A stretch of DNA of 64,000 nucleotides from an uncultured Candidatus Saccharibacteria bacterium (lineage in GTDB: Bacteria; Patescibacteriota; Minisyncoccia; Minisyncoccales; JANBVM01): positions 191 through 64,190 of the forward strand of contig CAZEQH010000004.1 of assembly GCA_964514375.1 (NCBI GenBank). The letters are read 5' to 3'. Position 1 is the stretch's first letter. Every line of letters starts with the position of its first letter. Below the pieces are notes generated by a model. That model was given only the letters and a program-made list of their open reading frames with translations. It did not search any database and was not told the DNA's origin. Shown here piece by piece: positions 8,891 through 59,799 of the stretch. A program made the translations under genes and the position numbers.

Positions 8891-11800
8891 AATGATTATT
8901 TTTTACTTTTTTTATGGAAATTTTTAATTTTTCCTCTCCCAAAACCAAATCTTTTTTGGCGGTTTTTTTTGCCTTTCCTTCAAGTAAATCTGCGGCTTTG
9001 ATACTCCTGATTATCTTTTTCTTATTTTCTTTTAAGACAGCGGCTAACCTGGGAGAGCTTTCAAAATAAACCAGGATGGTATCTTCTGGAGTAAACCCTG
9101 CCTCTTTCCGCATCTGCTGGATATTCCTGACAACCTCCCGGACCATGCCTTCCTGCGCCAATTCTTCAGTTATTTTTGTATCCAGCTCCATTTTATCACC
9201 AAAGGAAATATTTTTAACATTAATTTCTTCCTTAATTAGATTTAAAAGCTCTTTGTCCTGGGATAGATTTTTTTCTTTTATCTGGATGGAAAGAAGGGGC
9301 TGCCTCACCTTGATGCCGGCCTTTGCTCTCTCAGCTAAGGCTCCGGTAACTATCTGCCTGACCTGCGCCATCCTTTCATTAAGATTTGAGTCCATATCTT
9401 TCTTTGAAGCCTTGGGCCATTTATCCAAATGTACGGATACCTGCGCCTCTTTCTTTTTTTTGTTGATTTTCTGGTATATCTGTTCTGAGAGAAACGGTAT
9501 GAAAGGAGCGGAAAGCCTGCTGAGGTTCAGTAGCACGCATCCCAAAACTTTTGCGGCCCTTTTTAATTCCGCGGCTGTTTGAGGGTTTTGAAATCTCTTC
9601 CGGCTTCTCCTGACATACCAGAGAGAAAGGTCATTAATAACGAAGTCTTCTATCAGACGGGCAGAAGAAGTAATATCATAAGCATTTAAAAACCCTGTTA
9701 CCTCCAGCACCAGGCTGTTCAATTTGGAGACAATCCACTTATCCAGGATATTTCTGCTTTTTATCTTCAAGGATGAGCTCACTGCAAGGTACTGGGGAGC
9801 ATAGGTTGAGAAGAAATAAGAGCAGTTCCAGAAGGTGGAGATAAACTTCTTCAGTCTTTCCTTAACTTCCTTTTCCGAAAAAAGCTTAGGCTCCCCCGGC
9901 TGATTGGCAGTATAAAAATACCACCTTACGGTGTCTATGCCGTATTTTTCCATGATATACCAGGGATCTACTATGTTGCCGCGGGATTTGGACATTTTTT
10001 CTCCCTTATCATCAAGGATATGTCCCAGAGAAACGACGTTCCTAAAAGGGGCGCCCTTTTTAAGGAGTGTGGAAACCGCCAGCAGATTATAGAACCAGCC
10101 CCTGGTCTGGTCTACGGCTTCGCAGATGTAGTCGGCGGGAAACTGTTTCCCCGTGTCAATAATATTTTTGTTTTCGAAAGGATAATGATATTGAGCAAAG
10201 GGCATGGATCCTGCATCAAACCAGCAGTCCATCACGTCGGGTTCTCTTTCCATTTCTCCCTGACACTGAGGGCAGGAAAACTTTATCTTGTCCACGTAGG
10301 GACGGTGAAAATCCAGTTCTGCCTTATCGTTGAAGGGAAAAGGGACGAATTTAACTTCCCTTAACTCTCCGGGTCTGATGGTCTTTTCCTTCAGCTTTTC
10401 TTCCACCAATTCCTCCTGAAGCCTGCCCTTTAATGCTCCTTCCAGCAGCCAAAGAGGATCTCCGTGACTGACGACAAGAATGTTTTTGGATTTATATTTT
10501 TTTTCTGTCTCTTTTATAAATTTGAGCATTCTCTTCCTGCAGTGGAGCCAATCTTCTCCCCTCCGCGGTTTTTTATAAAATCTTTTCCTCATGTCCGGGA
10601 AAGCCCGGTAAAGCTCTTCCTTGGGTTTCCCTCTGAATTCTCCCAAATCTACATCCCTCAGTTTTTTATCAAATTTTATTTTCAGACCCAGGGCCTGAGC
10701 TGTTATTTCTGCCGTTTCCCTAGCCCTAAAATAATCCGAAGAGATAATAACGTCTATCTTATAATTCTTTATTCTGGAAGCGAGAGACTTTACCCTATTT
10801 TTCCCCTGGTCTGTAAGACCAAGAGAGGCGTCTTCTTCCCTGGAATAGATTATTTCTTTTCCTTTGGCGGTGCGGATGGTATCCCCGTGTCTTAGAAAAA
10901 AGTAGGCGTTGGAGCTGTATTCCTTCTTTAAAAAGTCCTCCCTGCTCCCCATCACTTCCGTCCTGTTACAGGATTTACATTTCCATACCGGCAGAGGAGT
11001 TCCCCAGTATCTTTCCCTAGACAGCGCCCAATCTTTAATTTCCCTAAGCCATTCTCCGAACCTTCCTTCTTTAAGGTAGGATGGAATCCAGTTGATTTTA
11101 TTGTTGTTTTCTATGATTTCCTTCTGTAATTTCTTCATTTTAATAAACCAGGTATTCCGGACATAATAAAGCAGGGGAGTTTTGCATCTCCAGCAAAAAG
11201 GATAGTCATGTTCGTAAGGTTCCTGTTTAAAAAGCAGTTCCCTCTGTTCCAGATTTTCAATAATCAGAGGATCTGCTTCCTTGAAAAACATACCGGCCCA
11301 CTTTTTGACATCAAATTTAAATCTGCCTTCTTCGTTAATAGTTATCAGTATAGGGATTTCCGTTTCTCCGGTTTCCTTCAATTTCCTGTTGCGGGATTTG
11401 ACCGCATCCATATCTTCTTCACCGAAGGCAGGGGCGATATGCACCAGCCCGGTGCCCTCTTCCAAAGAAACGAATTTGCCGGGGATAATCCTGTAGGCGG
11501 TACGGGAAATTTCATCGCTGTGCGGATAAAGGGGCTCATATATCAATCCCATCAGATCTTTCCCCTGGAATTCTTCTGCCGCCTCTCCTGAAAGGCCTAG
11601 GTCTTTCATCCTCTTTTTGGCCACTATTAGATAATCCTGGCCCTCTTTTACCTTGATATAGGTAAGATTGGGATTGACGGCTACTGCCACGTTGCCCGGC
11701 AGAGTCCAGGGAGTGGTAGTCCAGACGAGCAGACAGGTATTCTTAAATTCAGGATTTTTAATCTTCAGTTTCACGTAGATAGCGGGTTCCTTTATTTTCT

Positions 11801-14130: not shown

Positions 14131-15342
14131 TCAGCTAATATTTTTATGTCCCATAATGATACCTTCCGAAACTAGGGCTCTCAGGGCCGCCAGGTTCTGC
14201 GCCAGCCCCACCGAAGCCATGACCTGGGCAAGTTCTTCAGCGCTACTCACTTTCATAATTTTCAGAGATATAGCAGCCAGCGGGTGGTTCTTGATACTCT
14301 CCCCTACGCTGCCAGCCGCCACAGGGACTGTCATATTTCCTATAAGATTTCCCTTTCTGTCTTTTTCCCACTTTGATAAGGGCTTATAAGCGCCGGAGCG
14401 TACGGCAAAGCCGTGTACAGCGGCCTCAAGGGCCCTCCAATCGTTGCCGGTAGCCAGGGCCACGGCCCCCATGCCGTTCAGGATGCCCTTATTACTGGTT
14501 ACTGCCCGGTAGATATCGCTTTCTGCAATAATAGAGGCCTTGGTTATATTTTCAACGGTAGTTTCAGCGTCAAACCCCTTTTTCTTTAAAGCTTCCTTTT
14601 TTATTACGGCAGTTACCTTTACCAGCCTCTCCTCTGCCAGATTGGATACAATCTTAAGCAAGGCCTTTCCTCCGGTGATTTTTTCCATCAGGGGAGCTGT
14701 ATACTCTGCCATCTTATCTGCAGTATTGGCTCCCATGGCATCCCCGACGTCGATTACCAAATGAATCCTTAAGAAAGTTCCTATCTTTTTATTTTTGAAA
14801 ATTGCCGTTCTAACATCCCTGACGCCGCCTCCGGCTTTGATAAGGGCGGGGTCGCTTAGGTTGGCAAACTTGATTATATTTTCTTTCTCCTGAAGTAATT
14901 TTTTCTCAGCCTCCCCTGGTTTCTTAACTTCCACCAGATATATCTGACCGTACATAAAATTGCCAAGCACCTCAGCCTTTATACCCCCGGACTGTCGGGT
15001 CATCTTAGCTCCGTAAGAAGCGGCTGCTACCACGGAAGGTTCTTCTGTTACCATGGGCACAAGATAATCTTTTTCGTTAATCAAAAAATTAGGAGCTACG
15101 GAATAAGGAAGAGGAAAGGCCCCAATCACATTTTCCGACAACCGGTTTCTCGCTTTCGGGGACAGTATGCCTGCCTTGATGATATTCGTTTCCTCTGAAG
15201 TTAACCCTGCGAATTTTTTTACCCTCTCCAATCTCTCGCCGGCTGAAATATGAAAGAAATCCGGGAATCTGCTGTTTCTTTTTCTGTTCATAAGAAAGCT
15301 TCTTATTAGTTTCAGCTTATCTAATTTTTCTGTTAAAATCAA
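14131..15342 (-). CDS. mvaA: Hydroxymethylglutaryl-CoA reductase, class II
   Basis: Motifs ENVIGAFPLPYSVAPNFLIN, VTEEPSVVAAAS and DAMGANTADKMAE are typical of class II HMGR. The true start may be the internal Met (MNRKRNSRF, nt 15291), which would leave room for the divergent smpB promoter. Confidence 0.8.
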   Translation of the reverse strand: MILTEKLDKLKLIRSFLMNRKRNSRFPDFFHISAGERLERVKKFAGLTSEETNIIKAGILSPKARNRLSENVIGAFPLPYSVAPNFLINEKDYLVPMVTEEPSVVAAASYGAKMTRQSGGIKAEVLGNFMYGQIYLVEVKKPGEAEKKLLQEKENIIKFANLSDPALIKAGGGVRDVRTAIFKNKKIGTFLRIHLVIDVGDAMGANTADKMAEYTAPLMEKITGGKALLKIVSNLAEERLVKVTAVIKKEALKKKGFDAETTVENITKASIIAESDIYRAVTSNKGILNGMGAVALATGNDWRALEAAVHGFAVRSGAYKPLSKWEKDRKGNLIGNMTVPVAAGSVGESIKNHPLAAISLKIMKVSSAEELAQVMASVGLAQNLAALRALVSEGIIMGHKNIS

Positions 15343-15345
15343 AGA

Positions 15346-15795
15346 ATGAAGGAGATATCCAGAAACAAGAAAGCGTATTTCAATTATGAAATACTGGAGA
15401 GATTCGAAGCCGGCATCTCTCTAAACGGCCAGGAGGTTAAATCAATCAAGTCAGGCAGAATCAATCTGGCCGGAGCTTACGTGGTAATAAGGGGAGGAGA
15501 GGCCTATCTGCTGGGAGCCAACGTTCCTCCCTATCAACCCAAAAATGCCCCCGCAGATTATAATCCGGAGCGGTCCCGCAAGCTGCTTTTGAAAAAAGCT
15601 GAAATTAATTATTTAATCGGGAAAACAAAACAAAAAGGTTTGACAACCATACCTTTAAGAGTGTATAATATAAGAGGAAAAATAAAGCTGGAGTTTGGCT
15701 TAGGCAAGGGAAAGAGGGAAATCGACAAAAGGGAGACCATCAGGAAAAGAGAGACGGAACGGGAAATAAGAAGGGTCTTCAGAAAAAGCTCCTAA
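15346..15795 (+). CDS. smpB: SsrA-binding protein SmpB
   Basis: NKKAYFNYEILERFEAGISLNGQEVKSIK... and a basic C-terminal tail. It lies immediately upstream of the tmRNA. Confidence 0.9.
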   Translation: MKEISRNKKAYFNYEILERFEAGISLNGQEVKSIKSGRINLAGAYVVIRGGEAYLLGANVPPYQPKNAPADYNPERSRKLLLKKAEINYLIGKTKQKGLTTIPLRVYNIRGKIKLEFGLGKGKREIDKRETIRKRETEREIRRVFRKSS

Positions 15796-15989: not shown

Positions 15990-16332
15990 GGGGGTGTACA
16001 GATTCGACAGAGATGCAATCCAAAACATGCAAGTCGAGCCCAAAACTCGTAAAACTTTGGAAAACAAAACAATTGCCAATCTATTTGAAGGGCAACCCGC
16101 ATTAGCATTTGCTTAGTCTAATGCCATCTTCTCTGCCCATTCTCGATAAGCAGAGCAAGGTGTTATATCATCGAGAAAAAGAGTTCTTTGCGGTTCCGGG
16201 AGTTACTCCCGATAAACCGGACAGAAAGATTTTGCTCGGCTTCATACTTTCTGTCATGTTTCAAACCGAGACAAACTTGTAGACTGTTCTGGTGACCGTC
16301 CCTGGACAAGGGGGCAGTTCCCTTCATCTCCA
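15990..16332 (+). ncRNA. ssrA: tmRNA (SsrA), one-piece
   Basis: The 5' end GGGGGTGTACAGATTCGACAG pairs with the 3' end CATCTCC (acceptor stem, two G-U pairs), followed by discriminator A. The 3' architecture GGAC-AAGGG-GGCAGTT-CCCTT-CATCTCC-A parallels E. coli GGAC-GCGGG-UUCAACU-CCCGC-CAGCUCC-A. The internal tag ORF at 16075-16116, GCC AAT CTA TTT GAA GGG CAA CCC GCA TTA GCA TTT GCT TAG, encodes ANLFEGQPALAFA*. CCA is not encoded. Confidence 0.85.
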
Positions 16333-16339
16333 CAAAAAT

Positions 16340-26208: not shown

Positions 26209-27243
26209 ATGATTACAATCGACGGTTCCAAAATGGAAGGAGGAGGACAGATTTTGAGAACCTCCCTCGCCCTGGCCTCAAGTTTAAGACAGTCCTGCGA
26301 AGTTTCTCATATAAGGGAAGGAAGGGAAAAACCCGGCCTCATGCCTCAGCACTTGTCGGCCTTAAAGGCGGCGGCTGAATTGTGCGGAGGGGAGGTAAAG
26401 GGGGATTTCCTGGGAAGCAGGACGATACAGTTTTTTCCCGGCGCCTCTACAGAAAAATCTCTGACCATTAAGCTGGAAACGGCGGCCAGCATTCCTTTAA
26501 TAATGCAGGCCCTAATACTCCCCAGTCTTGTGTCTTCTTCTCCTGTTTCTATAAGTGTCAGAGGGGGGGCTACCGACACCTTCTTTGCCCCGTCATGGGA
26601 TTTCTTCCAGCATGTATTTCTAAAAATATTGGAAAGGATGGGAGCTGAGATAGAAGTGGAAACTAAAAAAAGGGGTTATTTTCCGGAAGGCGGTGCGGAA
26701 ATCATTTTGAAAATCCATCCCTCTTCTTTGAAAATTCGTTCCCTTACTAAAAGAGGGGAATTGACGAAAATATCGGTTTTTTCGGGAGCATCTTCTTCTC
26801 TACGGGAAAGAAAGGTAGCCGAACGCCAGATTACGGGAGCCAGAAGTGTGCTAGACAAGCTGAAAGGTTTTCCCGTACATACAGACATTAGGTATTACCA
26901 AACAGAATCCCCCGGCAGTCATATTTGCCTGGCGGCAGAATTCACCGGCACGGTTCTGGGGACAGATGTTCTGGGAACCCTGGGTAAAAGAGCTGAGGAC
27001 GTGGGACGGGAAGCTGCATCCAACTTACTGGAAGAAGAAAAAAATGGCGCCTGCCTGGATAAACATCTGACAGACCAGGCCCTTCCCTTTCTTGCCCTGC
27101 ATCCAAAAAAAATCGAGGTCAAGACCTCGCAAATTACCAGCCACGCCAGGACTAATATGTGGGTGATTGAAAAATTTATAAAAGGAAAATTCGAAACGCG
27201 GGAAAATAACATTACCTGGCTGCCGCTACAATCTAATCAGTGA
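26209..27243 (+). CDS. rtcA: RNA 3'-terminal phosphate cyclase RtcA
   Basis: IDGSKMEGGGQILRTSLALASSL at the N-terminus and the length (344 aa) are typical of RtcA. Confidence 0.8.
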   Translation: MITIDGSKMEGGGQILRTSLALASSLRQSCEVSHIREGREKPGLMPQHLSALKAAAELCGGEVKGDFLGSRTIQFFPGASTEKSLTIKLETAASIPLIMQALILPSLVSSSPVSISVRGGATDTFFAPSWDFFQHVFLKILERMGAEIEVETKKRGYFPEGGAEIILKIHPSSLKIRSLTKRGELTKISVFSGASSSLRERKVAERQITGARSVLDKLKGFPVHTDIRYYQTESPGSHICLAAEFTGTVLGTDVLGTLGKRAEDVGREAASNLLEEEKNGACLDKHLTDQALPFLALHPKKIEVKTSQITSHARTNMWVIEKFIKGKFETRENNITWLPLQSNQ

Positions 27244-27245
27244 AT

Positions 27246-28220
27246 TCAGATAGACTTATGCAAAGAAATGTTAGACCATTTCCCGCATCGGTCCCCCCAG
27301 CGCGCCATGGTTTTTCCTTCCATCTTTGCTTCTATAACTTCGCAGTGATTCGGACACCCGTCGCACTGGAAAGAAGTGCACTGGACGTCTTTATCTGAAA
27401 CCTCAAAGCCTAAAAATTTTGTTTTATCGGGAGCGGCTTCTTCAACCAGAAGAGCTGCTCCAAATGCCCCCATAACAGTATTATAAGAAGGGACAATAAT
27501 TTCCTGCTGCAAGGCATCTTCAAAGGCCTTCCTCATTCCTATGTTTTGAGAAACTCCTCCCAGGAAAACTATAGGAGCACTGACGTTCTTGCCTTTAGCT
27601 ACATTAGCTAAAAAATTCCTCGCCAGACCCTGGCATAAACCAGCGACAATATCCTCCACCCTGTGCCCTATCTGCTGTTTATGAATCATGTCGGACTCAC
27701 AAAAGACCGTACACCTAGAGCCGATGTTGGTCGGCTTTTTAGATTTTAAAGACAGACCTCCAAATTGTTCTATGGGTATTTTCAGCCGGAAGGCCTGAGC
27801 GTCGAGGAAAGACCCCGTGCCGGCTGCACAAATCAGGTTCATGGCAAAATCCACCGCTACACCATTGTCCAGAATAATAATCTTGGAATCCTGACCTCCT
27901 ATCTCTATGATAGTCCTGACGTCCGGCACCACGAAAGACGTGCCTTTGGCATGGGCTGTAATTTCGTTCTTAACCAAGTCCGCTCCTGTAATGACTCCGG
28001 CTAGATAGCGTGCAGAACCCGTAGTCCCCACGCCCACTATATCAACGTCCATGTCATTACTTTTAAGATAATCGTGCAGGTGTTTAAGCCCCTTCTGGAC
28101 AGCGCCGATGGGGTTGCCTTCCGTTCTCCTGTACAGATGATATAGTATCTTCCCGTCCGGGTCTATTAAGACCAGCTTAGTAGAAATGGAACCTACGTCT
28201 ATACCTAAATAAGTCTTCAT
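27246..28220 (-). CDS. BcrA/BadF/HgdC-type ATPase (CoA-substrate-specific enzyme activase-like) with a Cys-rich C-terminal extension
   Basis: ASKHA-fold N-terminus YLGIDVGSISTKLVLID, then GVGTTGSARY, ICAAGTGSFLD, SRCTVFCESDM and FLGGVSQN. The C-terminus is CTSFQCDGCPNHCEV...WGDRCGKW. Confidence 0.7.
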   Translation of the reverse strand: MKTYLGIDVGSISTKLVLIDPDGKILYHLYRRTEGNPIGAVQKGLKHLHDYLKSNDMDVDIVGVGTTGSARYLAGVITGADLVKNEITAHAKGTSFVVPDVRTIIEIGGQDSKIIILDNGVAVDFAMNLICAAGTGSFLDAQAFRLKIPIEQFGGLSLKSKKPTNIGSRCTVFCESDMIHKQQIGHRVEDIVAGLCQGLARNFLANVAKGKNVSAPIVFLGGVSQNIGMRKAFEDALQQEIIVPSYNTVMGAFGAALLVEEAAPDKTKFLGFEVSDKDVQCTSFQCDGCPNHCEVIEAKMEGKTMARWGDRCGKWSNISLHKSI

Positions 28221-29308
28221 GATAAACTTTGGCGATTATACTTCTTATGATGGTTTTTGACAACATCCACGAAGGCCTCCAGCCTGGTATCAATACCCGC
28301 TTCAGCCACCTGTTCGTCCAGAGAAAGAGATAAAAAAGGAATGTTTTTTTCCTTATGGATGTTCTCCAAGATAGGCCTTACCGTTACTTCAGGCATGCAG
28401 CCGAACGGCAGCAGGTGAACGACCCCGTCAAACTTTTTCTCTGCATAATCCAGCATCTCATAAATAGCGTCCCTGCCGTGGCCTCCAACGGTGGATTTCA
28501 AATAGGGATTTATCTTCCGCTGGATAACCCAATCCTTCCAGGGAAAAATTATCTTCTGAATATGATAAGTAACGTCCATTTCACGATGAACCTCAATGCC
28601 TTCTTTCCCCAGCTTTCTCTCCACTCCAAAATTGATATGAGGATCGCTCACGGTATATATCTCTCCTATAATGCCCACCCTAGGTACGGATTTATTCTTA
28701 TCAACCTTGATCTTAAGCAGTTTTTTCCCTATTTCAGTTTCAAGGCTCGACAATTCTTCCGGCCGATCCGCTCTTTCCATCCTGGCTAAAAAATAATCTA
28801 CTAATTTATCCGTTTCTCCGGCCTGAATTTCCCGCGGCCGATAATACTGGGCCTTTCTATCCACCTTTTCTACAAGCCATAGTTTTTTGAAAAAGATTCT
28901 GGCAGCCCTGAAAATCTGTGAAAAGGAAGCTCCGGAAACGCTTTTTACTTTCTTATAAATATTCTTGGGCGTTATCTTAAGGTCAATGAAATCAATATCC
29001 CAACCGTTTTCCTTGAGAATCTTATTCTGTATGGCTCCATAATACCTTTGTCGGCAGGATCCTCCTACGTTTTGTACCATAAAAATGGTGTTGGCTCCTT
29101 TTCTTAAGGCAGGTAAGTAGTTTCCGATAGTGGCTTTCATGGGAAAACAAAACATGTCTGGAACCAACTTAGCTCCCTCAGAAACGGTCCTGGGGTTAGT
29201 TTTTTCGGGGGGGATAACTTCCAAGCCCAATTGTTCAAAAAGGGTTTTGAAGGCTACGGTATAATTGCCCCAGCCGGCAAAAGTAACTATGGTTTTTTCT
29301 CTGGGCAT
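28217..29308 (-). CDS. 2-hydroxyacyl-CoA dehydratase/activase-associated subunit-like protein (second component)
   Basis: Resembles the C-terminal module of the large fused CoA-enzyme-activase proteins. It ends in DEQVAEAGIDTRLEAFVDVV, paralogous to the upstream gene's terminus. The start is set at ATG 29308 (MPREKTIVTFAGWGNY), 4 nt after the upstream stop, rather than the track start at 29380, which would overlap by 68 nt. Confidence 0.5.
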   Translation of the reverse strand: MPREKTIVTFAGWGNYTVAFKTLFEQLGLEVIPPEKTNPRTVSEGAKLVPDMFCFPMKATIGNYLPALRKGANTIFMVQNVGGSCRQRYYGAIQNKILKENGWDIDFIDLKITPKNIYKKVKSVSGASFSQIFRAARIFFKKLWLVEKVDRKAQYYRPREIQAGETDKLVDYFLARMERADRPEELSSLETEIGKKLLKIKVDKNKSVPRVGIIGEIYTVSDPHINFGVERKLGKEGIEVHREMDVTYHIQKIIFPWKDWVIQRKINPYLKSTVGGHGRDAIYEMLDYAEKKFDGVVHLLPFGCMPEVTVRPILENIHKEKNIPFLSLSLDEQVAEAGIDTRLEAFVDVVKNHHKKYNRQSLS

Positions 29309-29312
29309 AATA

Positions 29313-30230
29313 TTAATGGAGGGTATCCACGAAAGCCTCCAGCCTGGTTTGAAGGCCCGCTTCTCCCGTATGTTCGTCAATAATCAAATAAAGAAAAGGG
29401 GTTTTTCTTTTTTTAAATTCTCCTTCCACCATCTCTTTAATGACGCCGTCGCATCCGCATTGAAAAGAGGATATTTCCACTCCTCCCGTAATATTATATT
29501 TAAAGATTTCCCTGATTTTTTCAACTATTTCCTCGGCAAATTCCCAATGGAAATCCACTTCGGACAAGTCGCCGGCAGCACCCTTTCTTTTGGGTAAAAA
29601 TTTACGATGTCTGACCGGCACTTCTTCCAGCATAAGCGGCTGAACTCCCAACCGGAGAAGTTTCTCTTCGGTTCTCAGATTTACATAGGTATCATACAGA
29701 TTGTAGGGATGGGAAATTAAAATAATCTTAGGCTTTTTAGACGCCAGTTTTTTAAAAAATTTTTCCTCTTTTTTCAGCTCTTCTCTTTTTTCCTTTAAAA
29801 GTGAGTCCCTCAGCGCCGCCTTGACGTCTTGGACATTTTTATCAAGTTGAGCGCCCAGCTGCTCCAGGCTTTTCTGAAAAGACCTTTTCTTTTGGTCTAA
29901 GGTGCAGGTCAGTATGGGCGTAGTCACAAGAATTTGAGCCAGGTCCGGCAAACCGAAAAATTTCGGACAGTATTCCAGTTTTATTTCGTTGGTTTTAAGC
30001 CGTGGAACAAAGATTAAATCACATTTCTTGTCCAACCACATAAGGTGGCCCCAATACACCTTATTGGAGAAACATGTTTCCGGGTCTGCCTTCTTCACCC
30101 CCATCTCCACTATCTCTCTGTTGGTGGCGGGAGAAAGCAAGACCTCAAAACCCAGATTCTTGAAAAAACCCTCCCAGAAAAGTGGTCTCTTCCAATAAAC
30201 TAAAGCTTTAGGAATGCCTATAGTAACCAT
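29313..30230 (-). CDS. DUF2229-like CoA-enzyme-activase-associated protein (first component)
   Basis: N-terminus IGIPKALVYWKRPLFWEGFFKNLGFEVLLSPATN...ETCFSNKVYWGH is typical of the uncharacterised domain fused to BcrA/HgdC-type activases. The C-terminus is DEHTGEAGLQTRLEAFVDTL. Confidence 0.5.
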   Translation of the reverse strand: MVTIGIPKALVYWKRPLFWEGFFKNLGFEVLLSPATNREIVEMGVKKADPETCFSNKVYWGHLMWLDKKCDLIFVPRLKTNEIKLEYCPKFFGLPDLAQILVTTPILTCTLDQKKRSFQKSLEQLGAQLDKNVQDVKAALRDSLLKEKREELKKEEKFFKKLASKKPKIILISHPYNLYDTYVNLRTEEKLLRLGVQPLMLEEVPVRHRKFLPKRKGAAGDLSEVDFHWEFAEEIVEKIREIFKYNITGGVEISSFQCGCDGVIKEMVEGEFKKRKTPFLYLIIDEHTGEAGLQTRLEAFVDTLH

Positions 30231-31941: not shown

Positions 31942-32211
31942 TTATATTTTATAAACCTTGTATCCTTCCCTAACCTTCTGGTCAAACTTCAAACCCACAG
32001 AATCACCTTTCTTGGCCTTTTTCATTTTTTTGTGGTCAACCTCCATGGATTCCACCTGCTGTTCAAAATCAGTTTCTCCACCCACAACCCTGATATTTTC
32101 TCCTTCCTCCAAGCCGCCAGAAAGCTCTACGACTCCTACTCGTATATGCCCGAAATAATGACTAATAATGCCGATAAGTTTCCCCTCAGGATTTAATTTT
32201 TTTTCCGGCAT
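31942..32211 (-). CDS. Small beta-barrel protein resembling elongation-factor domain 2 (translation elongation factor-like)
   Basis: 89 aa. IGIISHYFGHIRVGVVELSGGLEEGENIRVVG...KGDSVGLKF resembles the EF-Tu domain-2 barrel. Weak assignment. Confidence 0.35.
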   Translation of the reverse strand: MPEKKLNPEGKLIGIISHYFGHIRVGVVELSGGLEEGENIRVVGGETDFEQQVESMEVDHKKMKKAKKGDSVGLKFDQKVREGYKVYKI

Positions 32212-33098: not shown

Positions 33099-33122
33099 AA
33101 AATCGCCCCGTAGGGCGATTTT
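33099..33122 (-). terminator. Intrinsic terminator directly after tRNA-Arg
   Basis: On the minus strand: AAAATCGCCC-tacg-GGGCGATTTT, starting 3 nt after the tRNA CCA end. Confidence 0.75.
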
Positions 33123-33124
33123 GG

Positions 33125-33200
33125 TGGTGCTCTCGGTAGGACTCGAACCTACAGTCTCTTCCTCCGGAGGGAAGCATTTTATCCATTAAACTACGAGAGC
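33125..33200 (-). tRNA. tRNA-Arg (anticodon CCG), CCA encoded
   Basis: Hand-folded cloverleaf: acceptor GCTCTCG/CGAGAGC, D arm GTTT-AATGGATA-AAAT, anticodon arm CTTCC-CTCCGGA-GGAAG (anticodon CCG), variable AGACT, T arm GTAGG-TTCGAGT-CCTAC, discriminator A, CCA. 76 nt. Confidence 0.9.
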
Positions 33201-33203
33201 CGA

Positions 33204-33908
33204 TTATTTCAGCGCCAGCTTTCTGGCTACGATATAGGTATTCTGGCGGGTTTCCCGCTGGTTCTCCGCTATCCCTAATTTTACCACTCTGAAGCCTGCT
33301 TTTTCCAGAGCGTCTCTTAGTTCCTTCCCGTAAAAATAATGATAATATCTCTCCGTCCTATCTCCCCAGGGCACCAGTATGTCTCCCCAATCCAGCTCTG
33401 ATTTCCTAATTACTTTTAGCCAGGTATACTTAAGTAACAGCATAAGCTCGCGGAAACGGTTAAATCTCCATACCGTCAGCACTAAAAGACCCTTATTTTT
33501 CAACACCCTCTGCGCCTCCTTTAGGAATTTTAATCTAAGCTGACGGGAAGGAATCTGATGGAATACGGCAACACTGAAAATCTTGTCAAAAAATTCATTA
33601 GGAAAAGAAAGTTCCAAGGCATCCTCTACAAAAAAATTGGCTTCGGGAAATTTTTTCCTGGCAATCTCAATCAGTGCTTCCGAATTATCCCCTCCAAAGT
33701 AAACCACCCCTTCTCTCTGAAAGAATGGATAATATCGTCCATTACCGCATCCCAAATCCAAAACCTTATCTCCGGGTTCGAGATACTCTTCAAATAAAAA
33801 TTTTGTTTCCGGCCAGGGGCTTTTCCGAGTTCTTGAAAAATCCTTGGCTATCAAGGTATAATCCTGTTTAGTCTTCCCGAGAAGATACCTTGCATATTCT
33901 TCTTGCAT
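33204..33908 (-). CDS. Class I SAM-dependent methyltransferase, Trm9-like (candidate tRNA mcm5U34 methyltransferase)
   Basis: SAM motif VLDLGCGNGRY, plus three stretches that match my recollection of yeast Trm9: IAKDFSRTRKSPWPE (Trm9 IAPHFSQTRYKPWP), DILVPW (DVFVPW) and ERYYHYFYGKELRDALEKAGF (YRYYHLYREGELAEDCRQAG). Confidence 0.6.
   Translation of the reverse strand: MQEEYARYLLGKTKQDYTLIAKDFSRTRKSPWPETKFLFEEYLEPGDKVLDLGCGNGRYYPFFQREGVVYFGGDNSEALIEIARKKFPEANFFVEDALELSFPNEFFDKIFSVAVFHQIPSRQLRLKFLKEAQRVLKNKGLLVLTVWRFNRFRELMLLLKYTWLKVIRKSELDWGDILVPWGDRTERYYHYFYGKELRDALEKAGFRVVKLGIAENQRETRQNTYIVARKLALK
33833..33862 (+). promoter_or_regulatory. Sigma-70-like promoter for elp3, embedded in the methyltransferase coding region
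   Basis: TTGAAA (33833-33838), 18-nt spacer, TATAAT (33857-33862), about 45 nt upstream of the elp3 ATG. Confidence 0.45.
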
Positions 33909-35540
33909 ATGAAATCAGAATATTTAATTCTAAAGGATTTATCCAACCACCAAAAAGAGGCTCGCAGCAACCTCCATGCCTTTAAGAGAAAAATGGCTAA
34001 AAAGTACCAGATTCCTTTTCCCAGCAACTTCCAGCTGTTAAGAGCTTATCATAATATTAGGAAAGAGAAAAGAATCAAGAAAATAGAAGGCATAAACCGC
34101 CTGCTTAGAACGCGGCCTGTACGCTCGCTTTCCGGTATTGTTAATGTCTCTGTACTGACCAAACCCTATCCTTGTCCCGGCAAATGCATCTTCTGTCCCC
34201 AAGAAGAGGGAATACCTAAGAGCTATCTCTCCGGAGAGCCCGCAGTAGAAAGGGCGAAAGAATTGGACTATCAGCCCTATAAACAGACCAGGAAAAGGCT
34301 GGAAACGCTGAAGGACCAGGGGCATCCGGGTGATAAAATAGGACTCAGAATAATCGGAGGGACGTGGTCTTTCTATCCTAAACGATATCAAAGCTGGTTT
34401 ATGAAGCAGTGTTTTGACGGCTGTAACGGCAAGATAAGCAAAACCTTGAGGGCGGCGCAAAGATTTAATGAAAGTTCCCGCCGCCGAATCGTTGAATTGT
34501 CTGTTGAAACCAGACCGGATTTCATCGATGAGAAGGAAGCGAAAAGAATGAGAAAACTCGGCGTTACCAAAGTAGAAATGGGGGCTCAAAGCCTTTCCGA
34601 CCGCGTTTTAACACTAAACCAAAGGGGGCATAATGTCAAAGCCCTTATAGACGCCACCAGGCTGCTGAAGGACGCGGGTTTTAAGGTCTCCTATCAGATG
34701 ATGCTGAACCTGCCCGGCTCGACCCCCGCGGAAGACATTAAAACTTTTGAAAGGTTATTTGACAATGCTTCTTTCAGGCCGGACTCCTTAAAGATTTATC
34801 CCTGCGCCCTGCTCAAGGAATCCCGTCTTTTTCAATGGTATTTGAAGGGAAGATATAAACCCTATACGGAAAAAACTCTGATTAACGTTATAAAATCAAT
34901 AAAAACTAAGATTCCTTATTACGTCAGGATAGAAAGGGTAATCCGGGATATACCCGCTCCCAGGATAGCGGCAGGTCCGGCTAAAGTATCGAATTTAAGA
35001 CAACTAGTTGAAGAAGAAATGAAGAAGGAAAAAAAAGACTGCAGATGCATCAGGTGCCGTGAGATAAAGAACAGGTACTGCCTCTCAGAAAAAGCTGAGT
35101 TGCATCGGCATGATTACCAGGCCTCATTGGGCAGGGAAATATTTTTGAGTTTTGAAGACAGGAAAAGAAGAAAACTTTACAGCCTCTTAAGGATGAGAAT
35201 CCCTTCATGGGTTTCCTCTAATCTGGAAAGTGAATCCCGACAAGCCCGCGGCCACAAGGGAAAATTATTCCTTCCTGTTTTAAAAAACTCGGCCCTCATA
35301 AGAGAAATCCATACTTATGGCCAAATGGTTCCCATAGATAAAAAAAGAACTGCTCCCCAGCACAAAGGATTAGGTCAGAAGCTGCTGAAAGCTGCTGAAA
35401 GAGTAGCAAGGGAAGAATTCGGTCTGCCCAGGATAGCTGTCATCTCGGGTGTCGGAGCCCGCAACTATTATCGAAAGAACGGATACCGCTTAAGTTCCAC
35501 CTATATGGTAAAAAACCTCTGTGAAAGAGGTTCTCTATAA
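33909..35540 (+). CDS. elp3: Elp3-type radical SAM / GNAT acetyltransferase (tRNA U34 carboxymethylation enzyme homologue)
   Basis: RTRPVRSLSGIVNVSVLTKPYPCPGKCIFCP (Elp3 radical-SAM cluster site), EMGAQSLSD, and a C-terminal GNAT segment QHKGLGQKLLKAAERVAREEFG. The ATG at 33909 is preferred over the track's TTG at 33903. Confidence 0.8.
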   Translation: MKSEYLILKDLSNHQKEARSNLHAFKRKMAKKYQIPFPSNFQLLRAYHNIRKEKRIKKIEGINRLLRTRPVRSLSGIVNVSVLTKPYPCPGKCIFCPQEEGIPKSYLSGEPAVERAKELDYQPYKQTRKRLETLKDQGHPGDKIGLRIIGGTWSFYPKRYQSWFMKQCFDGCNGKISKTLRAAQRFNESSRRRIVELSVETRPDFIDEKEAKRMRKLGVTKVEMGAQSLSDRVLTLNQRGHNVKALIDATRLLKDAGFKVSYQMMLNLPGSTPAEDIKTFERLFDNASFRPDSLKIYPCALLKESRLFQWYLKGRYKPYTEKTLINVIKSIKTKIPYYVRIERVIRDIPAPRIAAGPAKVSNLRQLVEEEMKKEKKDCRCIRCREIKNRYCLSEKAELHRHDYQASLGREIFLSFEDRKRRKLYSLLRMRIPSWVSSNLESESRQARGHKGKLFLPVLKNSALIREIHTYGQMVPIDKKRTAPQHKGLGQKLLKAAERVAREEFGLPRIAVISGVGARNYYRKNGYRLSSTYMVKNLCERGSL

Positions 35541-35563: not shown

Positions 35564-36457
35564 TTAAATAACGAATTTGACCGCCAGGTACCCCAGAATG
35601 GAGAAAAAAGCAATGGGCGGCAGGGCAGGAATAGGATTCCTTCTTTTCTGGAAAGCAAAAAAATAAAAGCTGGCCAAAAGCCCCATCACCGAAAACAGGG
35701 CCACGATAAGGGTTTTAGTAATGCCGAATGAAGGAACCAGAGAACAGCACAGGAATAACGGAAAAACTATGTCACCACCTCCTAAAATAAGGAATTTTCC
35801 CCCGGGCTTTAATTCTTCCAGGCGCTCCTGGAAACCCAAGATACTTCGGGGTATTATCAACCCTAGAATCGCCCTGCTTTCTATCATTTGTTTGGCCATT
35901 TCCACCATGTGTTTGGTTTTATAGACCGCCACAACATCGTATACAGAGAAAACTATCAAGAGGGCTACTACTATTTCCGGCTTAAATGCCAGTCCTAAAA
36001 AACTCCCGGCTCCGGAAATCCCCAGTACGATACAGAGATCCTGGATAAAAACAGAGGGCCACAGCCACCACCAGGCTAAAAAAATTGTCATCAGGAAAAG
36101 TGCCGGCAGATAAGGAAACCAAACGCTCATCATAGAAATGCCCCCTAAAAAAACAGCTGCCACAAAAATCAGCTTAAAAATCAATCCCTTCTGTTTTCTA
36201 AACTTCACTAGTTGAATAATCAGAAGAACAAAAAGCGTAGTCAAAAGAAACTGGAGAATGAAATGCCAAAATGATATTTCAGGAATAGCCATATTTTGCT
36301 CCTTGAGAGTGGCGCTGATTTCAAGAGCGGTAAAAATACCCAGCAGTAAAGTGAGAGAAAAGAGGAATACTTCAATAATGAGAATTTTCCAAAAAGGTTT
36401 TAGAAAAGAAAGCTCTTCATCAACCTCCAGCTGGCGATTATTTGTCTCTTCTGCCAT
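35564..36457 (-). CDS. Presenilin/signal-peptide-peptidase-like GxGD intramembrane aspartyl protease (peptidase A22 family-like)
   Basis: Polytopic membrane protein with the three family signatures in canonical order: FSVYDVVAVY (YD), FLILGGGDIVFP (GxGD) and NPIPALPPIAF (PAL). Confidence 0.65.
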   Translation of the reverse strand: MAEETNNRQLEVDEELSFLKPFWKILIIEVFLFSLTLLLGIFTALEISATLKEQNMAIPEISFWHFILQFLLTTLFVLLIIQLVKFRKQKGLIFKLIFVAAVFLGGISMMSVWFPYLPALFLMTIFLAWWWLWPSVFIQDLCIVLGISGAGSFLGLAFKPEIVVALLIVFSVYDVVAVYKTKHMVEMAKQMIESRAILGLIIPRSILGFQERLEELKPGGKFLILGGGDIVFPLFLCCSLVPSFGITKTLIVALFSVMGLLASFYFFAFQKRRNPIPALPPIAFFSILGYLAVKFVI

Positions 36458-37714: not shown

Positions 37715-39181
37715 TCACTCTCCCTTAATCACCGCTAAGGGTTTTAAAATTGCGACTTTTTTAGAAAGACCGGCTTTACTCACCACCTCTATCACTTCGT
37801 CTATGTCTTTATAAGCAAGAGGAGCTTCCTCGGATATACCTCTCAAGCTGTGACATTTTATAATTACCCCCTTTTGTTCTAACCTTTTTATTACTTCTTG
37901 TCCAGAAATCCGTCTCTGGGCTTCTCTCCGCGACATGGTCCTGCCGGCGCCATGGCAGGTTGACCAAAAGCTTTCTGCCCCCTCCTTGATACCGGCCATC
38001 ACATAAGATGCAGTGCCCATGGAACCCGGAATCAGAACCGGCTGGCCTACCGCGCGATATTGTTCAGGAATCTCTGGGCGGCCGGGAGGAAAAGACCTGG
38101 TAGCTCCTTTTCTATGAACACATAACTCCTCCTTCACCCCGCTTATCTCGTGCCCCTCTATCTTGGCAATATTGTGAGAAACATCATAAAGCATTCTGAG
38201 ATGTGCTTTCTCTCCCAGGACAGATGCCCAGGCCTTCCTGATATAATAAGCTATCATCTGTCTGTTGGCCCAGGCATAGTTTGCCCCGCAGGCCATAGCA
38301 GAAAAATATCTCTTCCCCTCCAGAGAATCTAAAGGACAGCAAGCCAGCTCCCGATCTGGTAAAATGATGCGGTATTTAGCCATAACATCCATCATTGTCT
38401 TAATATAGTCTGTGGCAATTTGGTGTCCTAAACCCCGGGAACCGGTATGTATCATTACTACTACTTGACCTTCGAAAATACCGAAGGCGGATGCTGTTAC
38501 CTCATCAAAAATCTTTTCCACCTTTTGAATCTCGCAAAAATGATTTCCGGACCCCAGAGTACCCACCTGGTCCCTTCCCCTGTTCTTAGCCCTGGCGGAA
38601 ACGGCGGACGAATCCGCCGCGTGCCCAAATTCCCCCTCTTCTTCACAGTTGCTGATATCTTCATCGTTCCCAAAACCCTGTTTCACTAAATAAGCAGATC
38701 CCCCTTCCAATACTCTGTCTATGAAGTTTATGTCAAGCTTCTTCCGTCTTCCCTTCCCCAGACCCGAGGGTACTTCCGTCTGAATCATGGAGGCTAAAGC
38801 ATCCAAATATTTTCCCAATTCCCCTGCAGTATATTCTGACTTCAGCAGCCGCATCCCGCAATTTATATCATATCCCACACCTCCCGGAGATATCACCCCT
38901 TCGCTTACCCTCACTGCAGCCACGCCCCCTATGGGAAAGCCATAGCCTTCATGCATGTCCGGCATAGCTAAACTGTATCTTGCGATACCCGGCAGAGAAG
39001 CAACATTCACTAATTGATTCAGTGACCTGTCACGGAAAATCTCACCCATCATTCTGCCTCCAGTGTATATTCTCGCCGGCACTCTCATATCAGCCCTAAA
39101 ACTCTTTGGAATTTCCCAAACCCAGTCGGATATTTTATGCAGGGTTTCCCTTGAAATCATTTTTTTTGTTTTATATTGCAT
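37715..39181 (-). CDS. rtcB: RNA-splicing ligase RtcB (3'-phosphate/5'-hydroxyl RNA ligase)
   Basis: PDMHEGYGFPIGGVAA, GVGYDINCGMR, HTGSRGLGHQIATDY, SHNIAKIE, CHGAGR: the full set of RtcB metal- and GMP-binding motifs. Confidence 0.9.
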   Translation of the reverse strand: MQYKTKKMISRETLHKISDWVWEIPKSFRADMRVPARIYTGGRMMGEIFRDRSLNQLVNVASLPGIARYSLAMPDMHEGYGFPIGGVAAVRVSEGVISPGGVGYDINCGMRLLKSEYTAGELGKYLDALASMIQTEVPSGLGKGRRKKLDINFIDRVLEGGSAYLVKQGFGNDEDISNCEEEGEFGHAADSSAVSARAKNRGRDQVGTLGSGNHFCEIQKVEKIFDEVTASAFGIFEGQVVVMIHTGSRGLGHQIATDYIKTMMDVMAKYRIILPDRELACCPLDSLEGKRYFSAMACGANYAWANRQMIAYYIRKAWASVLGEKAHLRMLYDVSHNIAKIEGHEISGVKEELCVHRKGATRSFPPGRPEIPEQYRAVGQPVLIPGSMGTASYVMAGIKEGAESFWSTCHGAGRTMSRREAQRRISGQEVIKRLEQKGVIIKCHSLRGISEEAPLAYKDIDEVIEVVSKAGLSKKVAILKPLAVIKGE

Positions 39182-39591
39182 CAGATATCAAACAATACAA
39201 CAGCTTCCCAGAGCCCCTCTCCTTTTTTCCTTACGTTCAAACCGTGGTAAGTGGCAGCTTTAATGTCCCTGCCAAACCGCGCCGCTTTCCTGCCCTTCAG
39301 CTCTCCCTCGATTAATTCAGCGGAAAACTTTCTGAAATCAATACCATTATAAACTTCTTTTTTGACGGAACTAAGATAGAGGCACTCGTTGAGAAAATCT
39401 ACTAATAAGGCCTTTGAGTCTGGTCCCTTCACCTTTATTTTTCTCTTTACTCTCTGTTTGTCGGCGCTGATTTCGGCTTGCTGGGAATCCTCCATTCCAC
39501 GCATCATATTTAGAAAAAGCTCTTTTCTGGTTCTGCCGAAAGATTTTATTTTTAAATCTGCTTTGTGATCCAAAATAACGTATTTATCCAT
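39181..39591 (-). CDS. Archease (RtcB activator)
   Basis: ILDHKADLKIKSFGRTRKELFLNMMRGM (HTAD-like N-terminus) and C-terminal IKAATYHGLNV...WEAVVLFDI. Its stop overlaps the rtcB ATG (TGATG). Confidence 0.75.
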   Translation of the reverse strand: MDKYVILDHKADLKIKSFGRTRKELFLNMMRGMEDSQQAEISADKQRVKRKIKVKGPDSKALLVDFLNECLYLSSVKKEVYNGIDFRKFSAELIEGELKGRKAARFGRDIKAATYHGLNVRKKGEGLWEAVVLFDI

Positions 39592-59420: not shown

Positions 59421-59424
59421 CTTG

Positions 59425-59799
59425 ATGTTGGCGAAAGAATTCAGGCTGTGTAAGAAGAAGGACTTTGAACAGGTTTTAAAAAGAGGGCGGGGCGTTAAAG
59501 AAGCATTTTTTGTTTTAAAAGTTAAAAAAACAAAGGAGGGAAGAATGAGATTCGGTTTCATAGTTTCTCAGAAGGTCTCCAAAAAAGCCGTGGTTAGAAA
59601 TAAAATTAAAAGAAGATTCAGGAGTGCTGTTCAGGAAGAATTAGGATGCAGGAGGGGTTCCGAGACCGCAAACAGATGCTTAGAAAAGAGTTTGGACGTT
59701 GTCTTAATAGCGCTACCGGGCGCAGAGGAAAGGAGTTTTAAAGAAACACACGAGAGAATTAAAAGAGCTTTCGGCAAGACAGGCGTATTAAACCCATGA
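59425..59799 (+). CDS. rnpA: Ribonuclease P protein component
   Basis: MLAKEFRLCKKKDFEQVLKRG...SKKAVVRNKIKRRFR (RNR-like motif); follows rpmH. Confidence 0.85.
   Translation: MLAKEFRLCKKKDFEQVLKRGRGVKEAFFVLKVKKTKEGRMRFGFIVSQKVSKKAVVRNKIKRRFRSAVQEELGCRRGSETANRCLEKSLDVVLIALPGAEERSFKETHERIKRAFGKTGVLNP

Follow-up and report, generated by a model that had tools for sequence, protein, structure and literature searches.

A divergent elp3 and Trm9-family methyltransferase gene pair as a probable wobble-uridine modification module in Patescibacteria (CPR)

Modification of the wobble uridine to xm5 derivatives is seen as domain-specific, with bacteria relying on MnmE/MnmG, and eukaryotes and some archaea on Elp3 together with Trm9. 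Does a bacterial genome also carry the second route? The question is raised by a 64-kb stretch of DNA (64,000 nucleotides; hereafter the window) from an uncultured Candidatus Saccharibacteria bacterium, in which a gene initially annotated as elp3 lies head to head with a gene for a Trm9-like methyltransferase. The features placed there by the initial annotation are all present in the sequence at their assigned positions, and the locus is laid out as follows:

33204..33908, minus strand: gene for a putative Trm9-family SAM-dependent methyltransferase of 234 aa (ORF and family comparison)
33909..35540, plus strand: elp3, for a stand-alone radical-SAM/GNAT protein of 543 aa (ORF, ATG at 33909)
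33906..33911, no strand assigned: abutting divergent start codons, CAT/ATG (read from the sequence)
33833..33862, plus strand: putative sigma-70-type elp3 promoter, TTGAAA-18-TATAAT (11/12 consensus matches)
33125..33200, minus strand: tRNA-Arg(CCG) with CCA encoded (ARAGORN; Rfam RF00005, 69.4 bits)
33099..33122, minus strand: intrinsic-terminator-like hairpin (MFE -17.1 kcal/mol)
33278..33307, minus strand: weak promoter-like site, TGGAAA-18-TAAAAT, with TG upstream (9/12; possible tRNA promoter)
34051..34078, minus strand: weak promoter-like site inside elp3, TTGATT-16-TATTAT (9/12; methyltransferase candidate)

Bases 33906-33911 read CATATG, and the starts of the two genes are 0 nt apart, as had been claimed. 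An in-frame TTG (33903) lies upstream of the elp3 ATG; the gene callers used on three identical public contigs choose the ATG. A second zero-spacer divergent pair in the window, HMG-CoA reductase and SmpB at 15342/15346, was set aside: the Pfam match of the reductase begins at residue 36, so the long ORF starting with TTG is probably overstated. The host is a bacterium, as supposed, since the window encodes tmRNA and SmpB and holds a dnaA-rnpA-yidC region (rnpA at 59422-59799, by sequence inspection); IF3, S20, UvrB and a Mur ligase are further bacterial markers.

Judged by its sequence, the assignment of the plus-strand gene to the Elp3 family is solid. The protein passes NCBIfam model TIGR01211 (520.9 bits vs a cutoff of 350), with residues 10-537 covering positions 5-522 of 522, and matches the solved Elp3 structures of Methanocaldococcus infernus (MinElp3; E 1.4e-119) and Dehalococcoides mccartyi (DmcElp3; 5L7J, 6IA6; E 6.3e-119). 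Domain matches include PF04055 (67.5 bits), PF16199 (74.1 bits) and the GNAT domain PF00583 (23.0 bits vs a cutoff of 20.7). All three functional motifs are intact: the Fe-S motif CPGKCIFCP is matched by CPGKCIYCP in DmcElp3 and by CPhGKCIFCP in MinElp3, the Zn motif CRCIRC is identical in the three proteins (CRCIRCRE aligns with CRCIRCRE), and the acetyl-CoA motif QHKGLGQKLL corresponds to QHRGLGRKLL (Dmc) and QHMGYGRML (Min). A Zn motif with three cysteines is characteristic of Elp3 from bacteria and archaea (PMC6367351). DmcElp3 is likewise a stand-alone bacterial protein, but the N-terminus of the window protein is extended and of archaeal type, with ∼70 additional residues that DmcElp3 does not have (PMC6367351); this extension and the Zn-binding CxCxxC are both shared with MinElp3. 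DmcElp3, the one bacterial Elp3 that has been studied, was called a rare bacterial example, with no Trm9 partner mentioned (PMC6367351). We predict that the elp3 product is a tRNA U34 carboxymethyl (cm5U) synthase.

The motifs that had suggested a Trm9-like neighbor (FSRTRKSPWP, DILVPW and RYYHYFYGKEL) are all found in the 234-aa methyltransferase ORF, and profile and sequence comparisons bear out this suggestion. The best PDB match is Yarrowia Trm9 (5cm2_Z), whether the query is the single sequence (E 1.6e-14) or a profile (82.1 bits, vs 68.6 for the next match). The alignment to Trm9 spans residues 25-216, whereas other methyltransferases align over the Rossmann core only and do not have the TR..PW, HH, VW, VPW and RYYH signatures. 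Using hhalign, the similarity to 14 fungal Trm9 proteins extends over the full length (columns 11-234; probability 99.94, E = 2.9e-37), and BLASTP against a Yarrowia Trm9 gives an E-value of 6e-24, with 30% identity over 206 aa. Full-length homology is thus shared with the eukaryotic Trm9/ALKBH8 methyltransferase domain (5CM2), which is also paired with Elp3. The IMG automatic annotation independently labels several family members TRM9 or ALKBH8. From its sequence, then, the methyltransferase is a member of the Trm9 family. This family is large (833 clusters at 50% identity, with E-values of 1e-30 or better); the top 150 representatives are 169-322 aa long, and no Trm9-Elp3 or Trm9-Trm112 fusions were found among them.

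The two genes are neighbors far beyond the window. Out of 78 informative species-level CPR loci, 72 have elp3 adjacent and divergent to the methyltransferase gene, where the loci are phylogenetically related and the counts are not fully independent; any other neighbor of the methyltransferase gene is common to at most 31 out of 80 loci. The adjacency persists at 36-57% protein identity and in several CPR classes, and the starts stay close: among 73 loci the median start-to-start distance is 2 nt, with the starts overlapping in a CATG palindrome (-2) in 21 loci and 0 nt apart in seven. Among CPR organisms in co-culture, at least Ca. Microsyncoccus archaeolyticus carries the pair. Because the divergent pairing was found again in ∼70 other species-level genomes, the arrangement is more than chance; Elp3 and the Trm9-family methyltransferase are probably functionally linked, as their adjacency across many CPR lineages suggests, and very likely represent a real bacterial version of the Elp3-Trm9 pathway. 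In the proposed pathway, the stand-alone Elp3, with its radical-SAM and acetyl-CoA-binding GNAT domains, would place a carboxymethyl group onto C5 of U34 (cm5U), and the methyltransferase would use SAM to methyl-esterify the carboxyl of cm5U, giving mcm5U34.

How far the catalytic apparatus of Trm9 is retained can be read from the residues studied in yeast. Mutagenesis of yeast Trm9 found R29, D72, W145, W168, R241, Y243 and N271 to be essential, and also His116, the H116A protein being inactive (PMC4678810). Seven of these eight are invariant in the family: the equivalent residues of the window protein (R28, D74, W147, W181, R187, Y189 and N223, in the same order) are kept in 26 out of 26 members. 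H117, the equivalent of yeast H115, is also invariant. The exception is the column of yeast His116 (Yarrowia H127), which is Gln118 in the window protein; in the family, 15 out of 26 members have His and 11 (∼40%) have Gln. The protein shares with eukaryotic Trm9 the N-terminal VY..IA..FS.TR..W and the equivalents of D72, H115, W145, W168, R241-Y-Y243-H and N271, but does not have the long insertion present in the S. cerevisiae protein. Yeast Trm9 and the human ALKBH8 domain are Trm112-dependent tRNA (carboxymethyluridine34-5-O)-methyltransferases, and Trm112 is required by Trm9 of eukaryotes and Haloferax. The Trm112-like partner raised in the initial annotation did not turn up: regex searches of six-frame translations, a survey of 36 small ORFs between genes and tblastn using YcaR of E. 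coli as the query revealed no Trm112/YcaR-like ORF, either in the window (64 kb) or at 80 loci out to a distance of 6 kb.

Two other readings of the methyltransferase were weighed against the formation of mcm5U. In the first, it would be a generic class I SAM enzyme whose substrate is a small molecule or some unrelated target, and the adjacency to elp3 would be inherited gene order with no functional meaning; gene order in the clade is indeed partly conserved overall. Pfam and NCBIfam return generic methyltransferase domains only, and no curated family cutoff is reached: the top NCBIfam score is 59.3 bits (cutoff 155), and UbiE (TIGR01934; 40.6 bits vs 158), BioC (38.6 bits vs 185) and other curated bacterial class I families were rejected with scores far under their cutoffs. 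An AlphaFold model of the protein has a pLDDT of 93. In a Foldseek comparison with the PDB, an uncharacterized methyltransferase of the archaeon M. mazei (3sm3) ranks first and Trm9 second; class I methyltransferases score alike in this comparison, so the family assignment rests on sequence profiles and residues. These contain a full-length Trm9 profile match with Trm9-specific residues kept, and beyond the SAM motif there is no similarity to UbiE or to E. coli CmoM (SmtA), which was rejected as an identity for this protein (E 0.092, 19/87 identities, around the SAM motif only). The likeness to UbiE/SmtA-type enzymes that would have spoken against Trm9 is therefore not seen, and with elp3 adjacent in 72 out of 78 loci, far more often than any other neighbor, we consider a generic enzyme very improbable. 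An end product other than mcm5U, with the pair functional and both proteins acting on U34, is somewhat less remote though still unlikely. The methyltransferase, especially in its Gln118 forms, might have a shifted specificity or a non-catalytic partner role, or the Elp3 product might stay cm5U or become ncm5U or another derivative. The Gln in place of a histidine whose replacement by alanine abolishes activity in yeast speaks for such a change, as does the outcome of the Trm112 search. On the other side, Gln can serve as donor of the hydrogen bond that His would give. The remaining catalytic and substrate-binding residues are invariant, among them the Asp that binds SAM and the R/Y/N residues thought in the proposed model to grip the uracil ring and the carboxylate of cm5U, and this invariance suggests that catalysis on the same substrate is retained. 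A cm5U34 carboxyl methyl-ester-forming enzyme, converting cm5U to mcm5U, is accordingly our prediction for this protein.

With abutting starts, the initial annotation reasoned, each promoter must lie inside the other gene, and this is borne out for elp3 only. The site TTGAAA (33833-33838) and TATAAT (33857-33862), with a spacer of 18, scores highest among the promoter-like sites between 32700 and 35800; it is antisense to methyltransferase codons 16-18 (D-Y-T/N) and 24-26 (F-S-R). An antisense TATAAT is found at the same codon position in 39 out of 80 loci (next best position: nine), and an antisense TTGAxx in 27 out of 80 (next best: 10). Synonymous codons are biased in the same places: the D16 codon is GAT in 48 out of 48 cases (background 0.70), and the S25 codon is TCA in 31 out of 65 (background 0.20). 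The embedded promoter is present in 34 out of 53 loci with a start spacing of at most 17 nt, vs two out of 16 with a spacing of at least 31 nt. These patterns support a proposed elp3 promoter inside the methyltransferase gene that is held by biased synonymous codons. Transcription of elp3 would start from this sigma-70-type element, antisense in codons 16-26, and the position of the promoter implies an elp3 leader of ∼40 nt that would run antisense to the partner gene over its first codons. For the methyltransferase gene, no conserved sigma-70-like site was found within 260 nt upstream inside elp3, where sites are weak and not conserved, and inspection of the 70 nt before its ATG in 36 loci revealed no conserved promoter either. 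The sole candidate is TTGATT-16-TATTAT (34051..34078, minus strand), ∼140 nt upstream of the start, and its position is not conserved. Nor does a -10 element at a suitable distance in the window support a leaderless start.

Downstream of the methyltransferase gene, the 5' end of tRNA-Arg(CCG) lies 3 nt past the TAA stop (33204-33206) on the same strand; this geometry, already described initially, is read directly from the sequence, and both ARAGORN and Rfam call the tRNA. In 22 other species-level loci the same tRNA gene likewise comes after the methyltransferase gene on its strand, and tRNA-Ser(CGA) takes the equivalent place in two, i.e. a tRNA is adjacent in 24 other loci altogether. Directly after the 3' CCA of the tRNA comes the hairpin AAAAUCGCCC-UACG-GGGCGAUUUU, which is more stable than any of 200 shuffled sequences (z = -4.9); a simple terminator scan did not list it. 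The adjacent tRNA has C34 and so is not itself a substrate of Elp3. Most likely the methyltransferase and tRNA-Arg(CCG) are co-transcribed: a single transcript would end at the hairpin, and RNase P, for which the window carries rnpA, would free the tRNA and set the 3' end of the mRNA. Alternatively, the tRNA may stay outside this mRNA and be made from a promoter of its own near the end of the methyltransferase gene, the tight spacing being due to genome compaction, an option that we consider the less probable one. A tRNA is normally needed in amounts far above those of the mRNA for a modification enzyme, and 78 nt before the tRNA there is TGGAAA-18-TAAAAT with its upstream TG. This site, however, has 9/12 matches only, and in 20 out of 23 loci the 130 nt before the tRNA contain nothing comparable; matches of at least 9/12 are found only in the window and in two other loci (L032 and L041), at differing positions. 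Moreover, the terminator comes after the tRNA and not after the ORF, and in five species the methyltransferase ORF enters the tRNA, using tRNA nucleotides 8-10 as its stop codon. Apparent reading of the ORF through into the tRNA at two further loci (L030 and L041) was left out of account as a probable artefact of the way ORFs were extended.

MnmE/MnmG is the usual bacterial route to xm5U34 (cmnm5U/mnm5U) and has the same decoding role of U34 in split codon boxes; it has the target position in common with the Elp3 route, but its enzymes and chemistry are unrelated. CmoM resembles the methyltransferase in its class I fold and in an analogous SAM-dependent methyl ester formation on a wobble-uridine carboxyl, but it converts cmo5U34 to mcmo5U34 downstream of CmoA/CmoB rather than of Elp3, and has no specific sequence relationship to it. 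Eukaryotic Trm9 differs from the present system in host, in the head-to-head position of elp3 here and in that no Trm112 was found nearby. The closest parallels are archaeal: the candidates of Haloferax volcanii (HVO_2888 / HVO_1032) and Sulfolobus solfataricus likewise have a stand-alone Elp3 without Elp1, Elp2 and Elp4-6, and the Elp3 and Trm9 genes of S. solfataricus, compared here by literature description, are also physically clustered (PMC6144793, PMC5372719). They differ from the window in host, which is bacterial here (tmRNA, SmpB, DnaA, RnpA). A 2017 review found prokaryotic Trm9 orthologues only in Sulfolobales and Halobacteriales, with none in bacteria, and homologues of Trm112-dependent methyltransferases undetectable in bacterial genomes (PMC5372719). 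Our literature search did not uncover a description of such a pair in bacteria, in agreement with the initial view that such a linked pair is uncharacterized; the enzymes are of a known kind, and their occurrence in bacteria appears to be unpublished.

Taken from sequence comparisons, it is probable that the locus is a compact wobble-uridine module of Patescibacteria (CPR) that gives mcm5U34 and has the gene organization proposed above. To our knowledge, mcm5U34 has so far been documented only in eukaryotes and archaea, and such a module would mean that a major radiation of bacteria has the mcm5U pathway as well. A broader version, which we put forward only tentatively and consider rather doubtful, is that mcm5U34 is made CPR-wide by Elp3 and a Trm112-independent Trm9 in place of MnmE/MnmG, with an unusual wiring of the module: overlapping divergent starts, an elp3 promoter in trm9 codons, a 5' antisense overlap and a trm9 mRNA punctuated by a tRNA that in some species provides the stop codon with its nucleotides 8-10, such that excision of the tRNA would compete with translation of the intact mRNA. 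The promoter in conserved codons and the tRNA overlapping the ORF end would be clear cases of sequence put to double use in a compact genome, and a Trm9-type family in CPR bears on gene exchange with archaea or the ancestors of eukaryotes. The pair would also offer a minimal two-protein system for mechanistic study, possibly working without Trm112 or the accessory subunits of Elongator.

The plus-strand gene of the pair encodes an Elp3 homologue, as proposed in the initial annotation. Its product matches NCBIfam TIGR01211 over the full length (520.9 bits, cutoff 350) and, at E ~1e-119, the solved structures of Elp3 from Methanocaldococcus infernus and Dehalococcoides mccartyi, and the Fe-S (CPGKCIFCP), Zn (CRCIRC) and acetyl-CoA (QHKGLGQKLL) motifs align with their counterparts. 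About 70 N-terminal residues align with the archaeal enzyme, whereas DmcElp3 (the D. mccartyi protein) lacks them; the Pfam model ELP3_N scores below its cutoff. The pair and its adjoining features are:

33125–33200, minus strand: tRNA-Arg(CCG), found by ARAGORN and Rfam
33204–33908, minus strand: methyltransferase ORF, 234 aa (ORF listing)
33909–35540, plus strand: elp3 ORF starting with ATG, 543 aa (ORF listing)
33833–33838 (TTGAAA) and 33857–33862 (TATAAT), plus strand: elp3 promoter-like site, spacer 18 nt, 11/12 matches, best in the region
33307–33278: weak promoter-like site upstream of the tRNA

The divergent neighbour had been called Trm9-like, and several lines of sequence comparison place it in the Trm9 family. 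Pfam and NCBIfam assign it generic class I methyltransferase domains only, and none of the curated bacterial methyltransferase families in NCBIfam reaches its cutoff (UbiE, 40.6 versus 158). Among all solved structures the best match is Yarrowia lipolytica Trm9 (5cm2_Z), both for the single sequence and for the profile of the family (26 members); this is the sole structure match whose alignment spans residues 25 to 216, the next ones aligning over the Rossmann core only or missing signature residues. The family profile matches a profile of 14 fungal Trm9 proteins over residues 11–234 (probability 99.94, E = 2.9e-37), and BLASTP against the Yarrowia-type Trm9 gives E = 6e-24 (30% identity over 206 aa), whereas E. 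coli CmoM/SmtA, the bacterial enzyme of analogous chemistry, gives E = 0.09. A grouping with generic UbiE/SmtA-type enzymes is thus not what these searches return. Eight residues are known from inactivating or crippling mutations in yeast Trm9: R29, D72, H116, W145, W168, R241, Y243 and N271 (Letoquart et al., PMC4678810). The equivalents of seven of them, and likewise Y18, are invariant in 26/26 family members; the H116 equivalent differs, being Gln118 in the window protein (codon 33555–33557), and this column holds His in 15 and Gln in 11 members next to an invariant H115 equivalent. AlphaFold models the protein with high confidence (pLDDT 93), and the fold search was not discriminating (Trm9 ranked second). 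The family is large, with 833 clusters (50% identity) at E ≤ 1e-30, and no fusion proteins occur among its top 150 representatives. Several members are labelled TRM9 or ALKBH8 by IMG automatic annotation and class I SAM-dependent methyltransferases by NCBI. Neither the window nor the 6 kb around any of the 80 related loci contains an ORF resembling Trm112 (the Trm9 partner in eukaryotes) or YcaR.

The window is bacterial: a tmRNA (15990–16335; Rfam match, not reported by ARAGORN) adjoins SmpB, IF3, ArgRS, GreA, TsaE, DnaA and YidC, inspection adds L35, L20, L34 and RnpA, and the same contig carries S20, UvrB, a Mur ligase and DNA polymerase III delta. For both proteins, the nearest relatives are in Patescibacteria/CPR genomes with names such as Nealsonbacteria, Parcubacteria and Paceibacterota. 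Divergent from smpB (15346–15795) and the tmRNA lies a minus-strand HMG-CoA reductase gene (14131–15342; PF00368, 324 bits), pointing to a putative mevalonate-pathway enzyme in this bacterium.

Scanning one genome for each GTDB species gave 424 confirmed relatives, of which the best 80 loci were fetched. In 72 of these 80 Elp3 is directly adjacent and divergent, so the pairing is syntenic across CPR; it is tandem-adjacent in one locus (L076) and 4 kb away in another (L081), missing from the available flank in four (L050, L061, L078 and L082), and two loci are uninformative because of contig ends. The pairing exceeds background gene-order conservation, since any other window neighbour is common to at most 31 of the 80 loci. 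The lineages covered are Nealson-, Portnoy-, Campbell-, Falkow-, Kuenen-, Peri- and Gracilibacteria, with methyltransferase identities of 36–57%. One 4.6-kb contig (L032, DAOPTN010000030.1), binned as a Pacearchaeota archaeon, is arranged like the CPR loci (elp3/methyltransferase/tRNA-Arg(CCG)); mis-binning of a CPR contig is the probable explanation, the alternative being transfer between CPR and DPANN.

The two start codons abut as originally described (33906–33911 is CATATG), and gene calls of three identical public contigs give the same boundaries. Across 73 loci the start-to-start distance has a median of 2 nt and is at most 30 nt in 57, with a CATG palindrome in 21 and CATATG, as in the window, in seven (start assignment is heuristic for loci whose alignment opens at residue 7–8); spacers of the other divergent gene pairs in the window are 96–390 nt. 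The initial annotation reasoned that each promoter must lie inside the other gene. This is well supported by sequence conservation for elp3, whose predicted TTGAAA-18-TATAAT promoter is present as described; for the methyltransferase, no conserved promoter inside elp3 was found across the loci. Promoter-like sites as a whole are no more numerous in the region than expected from shuffled sequence. The elp3 element is antisense to methyltransferase codons 16–18 (D-Y-T/N, giving TATAAT) and 24–26 (F-S-R, giving TTGAAA), which sit within the most conserved Trm9 motif. Antisense TATAAT at that exact codon and phase is found in 39/80 loci (runner-up position, 9) and TTGAxx at its codon position in 27/80 (runner-up, 10); the D16 codon is GAT in 48/48 (background 0.70, p = 5e-8) and the S25 codon TCA in 31/65 (background 0.20, p = 8e-7), both biases favouring the promoter sequence; and the element occurs in 34 of 53 loci with starts at most 17 nt apart, two of 16 with starts at least 31 nt apart and none of six without a divergent adjacent Elp3 (Fisher p = 4e-4)—statistics that are inflated by shared ancestry of the loci, although at such divergence saturation of the synonymous sites is to be expected. 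An embedded promoter would give elp3 a leader of ∼40 nt, antisense to the first 13 methyltransferase codons.

At the other end of the methyltransferase gene, ARAGORN, Rfam and the sequence itself agree on the tRNA-Arg(CCG) noted initially, on the same strand, its first base 3 nt past the TAA stop. A same-strand tRNA follows the methyltransferase in 24 other loci out of 80, mostly closer relatives: tRNA-Arg(CCG) in 22 and tRNA-Ser(CGA) in two, the gap often being 0–14 nt. In five species the ORF has no stop ahead of the tRNA, and the first in-frame stop is formed by tRNA nucleotides 8–10 (U8-A9-G10 for tRNA-Arg):

L007, 6687–6696: tRNA-Arg, TAG
L011, 6684–6693: tRNA-Arg, TAG
L014, 6690–6699: tRNA-Arg, TAG
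L017, 1064–1073: tRNA-Arg, TAG
L012, 6675–6684: tRNA-Ser, TGA

In these species, RNase P processing of a shared transcript would consequently leave a non-stop mRNA. Of 23 loci, 20 show no promoter-like site in the 130 nt preceding the tRNA, and the encoded CCA of the window tRNA is directly followed by a hairpin of high stability (−17.1 kcal/mol, z = −4.9). Given the tight gaps, the stops inside the tRNA, the missing upstream promoters and the hairpin, the most economical reading is that methyltransferase and tRNA would be co-transcribed and then processed by RNase P. With C at position 34, the neighbouring tRNA is no substrate of Elp3, and its linkage to the pair therefore seems to be a matter of gene organisation, not of enzymology. 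In the related CPR genome L011, ARAGORN calls a tRNA-Ile with anticodon UAU (11687–11762, minus strand). To avoid reading AUG, this tRNA would have to carry a U34 of restricted wobble, which may bear on the retention of a U34 modification pathway in these organisms.

Several other genes surround the pair. Among its commonest neighbours, and just past the tRNA in the window, are minus-strand genes for an 89-aa protein with a weak EF-Tu domain-2 match (31942–32211; near the pair in 29/80 loci) and a SLOG/LOG-like protein (PF18306; 32226–32780; 25/80). Within 8 kb lie RtcA (RNA 3'-phosphate cyclase; 26209–27243, plus), RtcB (RNA ligase; 37715–39181, minus; near the pair in 10/80 loci) and archease (39181–39591, minus; 4/80), so that archaeal/eukaryotic-type RNA-processing genes are grouped in the window. 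Directly downstream of elp3 is a minus-strand gene for a presenilin/signal-peptide-peptidase membrane protease (35564–36457; PF06550, 70 bits), a family more typical of archaea and eukaryotes. Three consecutive minus-strand genes (27246–30230) with BcrAD/BadFG-type ATPase and DUF2229/HGD-D domains, resembling a putative activator/dehydratase set of 2-hydroxyacyl-CoA-type radical enzymes, are unexpected in a reduced CPR genome.

Clustered Elp3–Trm9 genes are known from Sulfolobus solfataricus, much as they are paired here in CPR bacteria, and (m)cm5U from Haloferax (PMC6144793, PMC5372719, PMC6367351); a 2017 review limits archaeal Trm9 orthologues to Sulfolobales and Halobacteriales and reports none in bacteria (PMC5372719). 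DmcElp3 was termed a rare example of a bacterial Elp3 (PMC6367351), a 2026 paper reports Elp3 in numerous bacteria, and a 2018 survey of bacterial wobble-modification enzymes left out Elp3 and CPR. A full-text search for Elp3 in Candidate Phyla Radiation, Patescibacteria or Parcubacteria returned nothing relevant, in keeping with the earlier view that a bacterial Elp3–Trm9 pair is uncharacterised.

The evidence supports an Elp3 and Trm9-family pair conserved across CPR bacteria, whose predicted product is very likely (m)cm5U34. The enzymes are of known kinds, partly recognised already by automatic annotation; the interest lies in a Trm9 homologue in bacteria and its near-obligate coupling to Elp3, and in a putative elp3 promoter written into conserved codons and a probable tRNA-punctuated 3' end.
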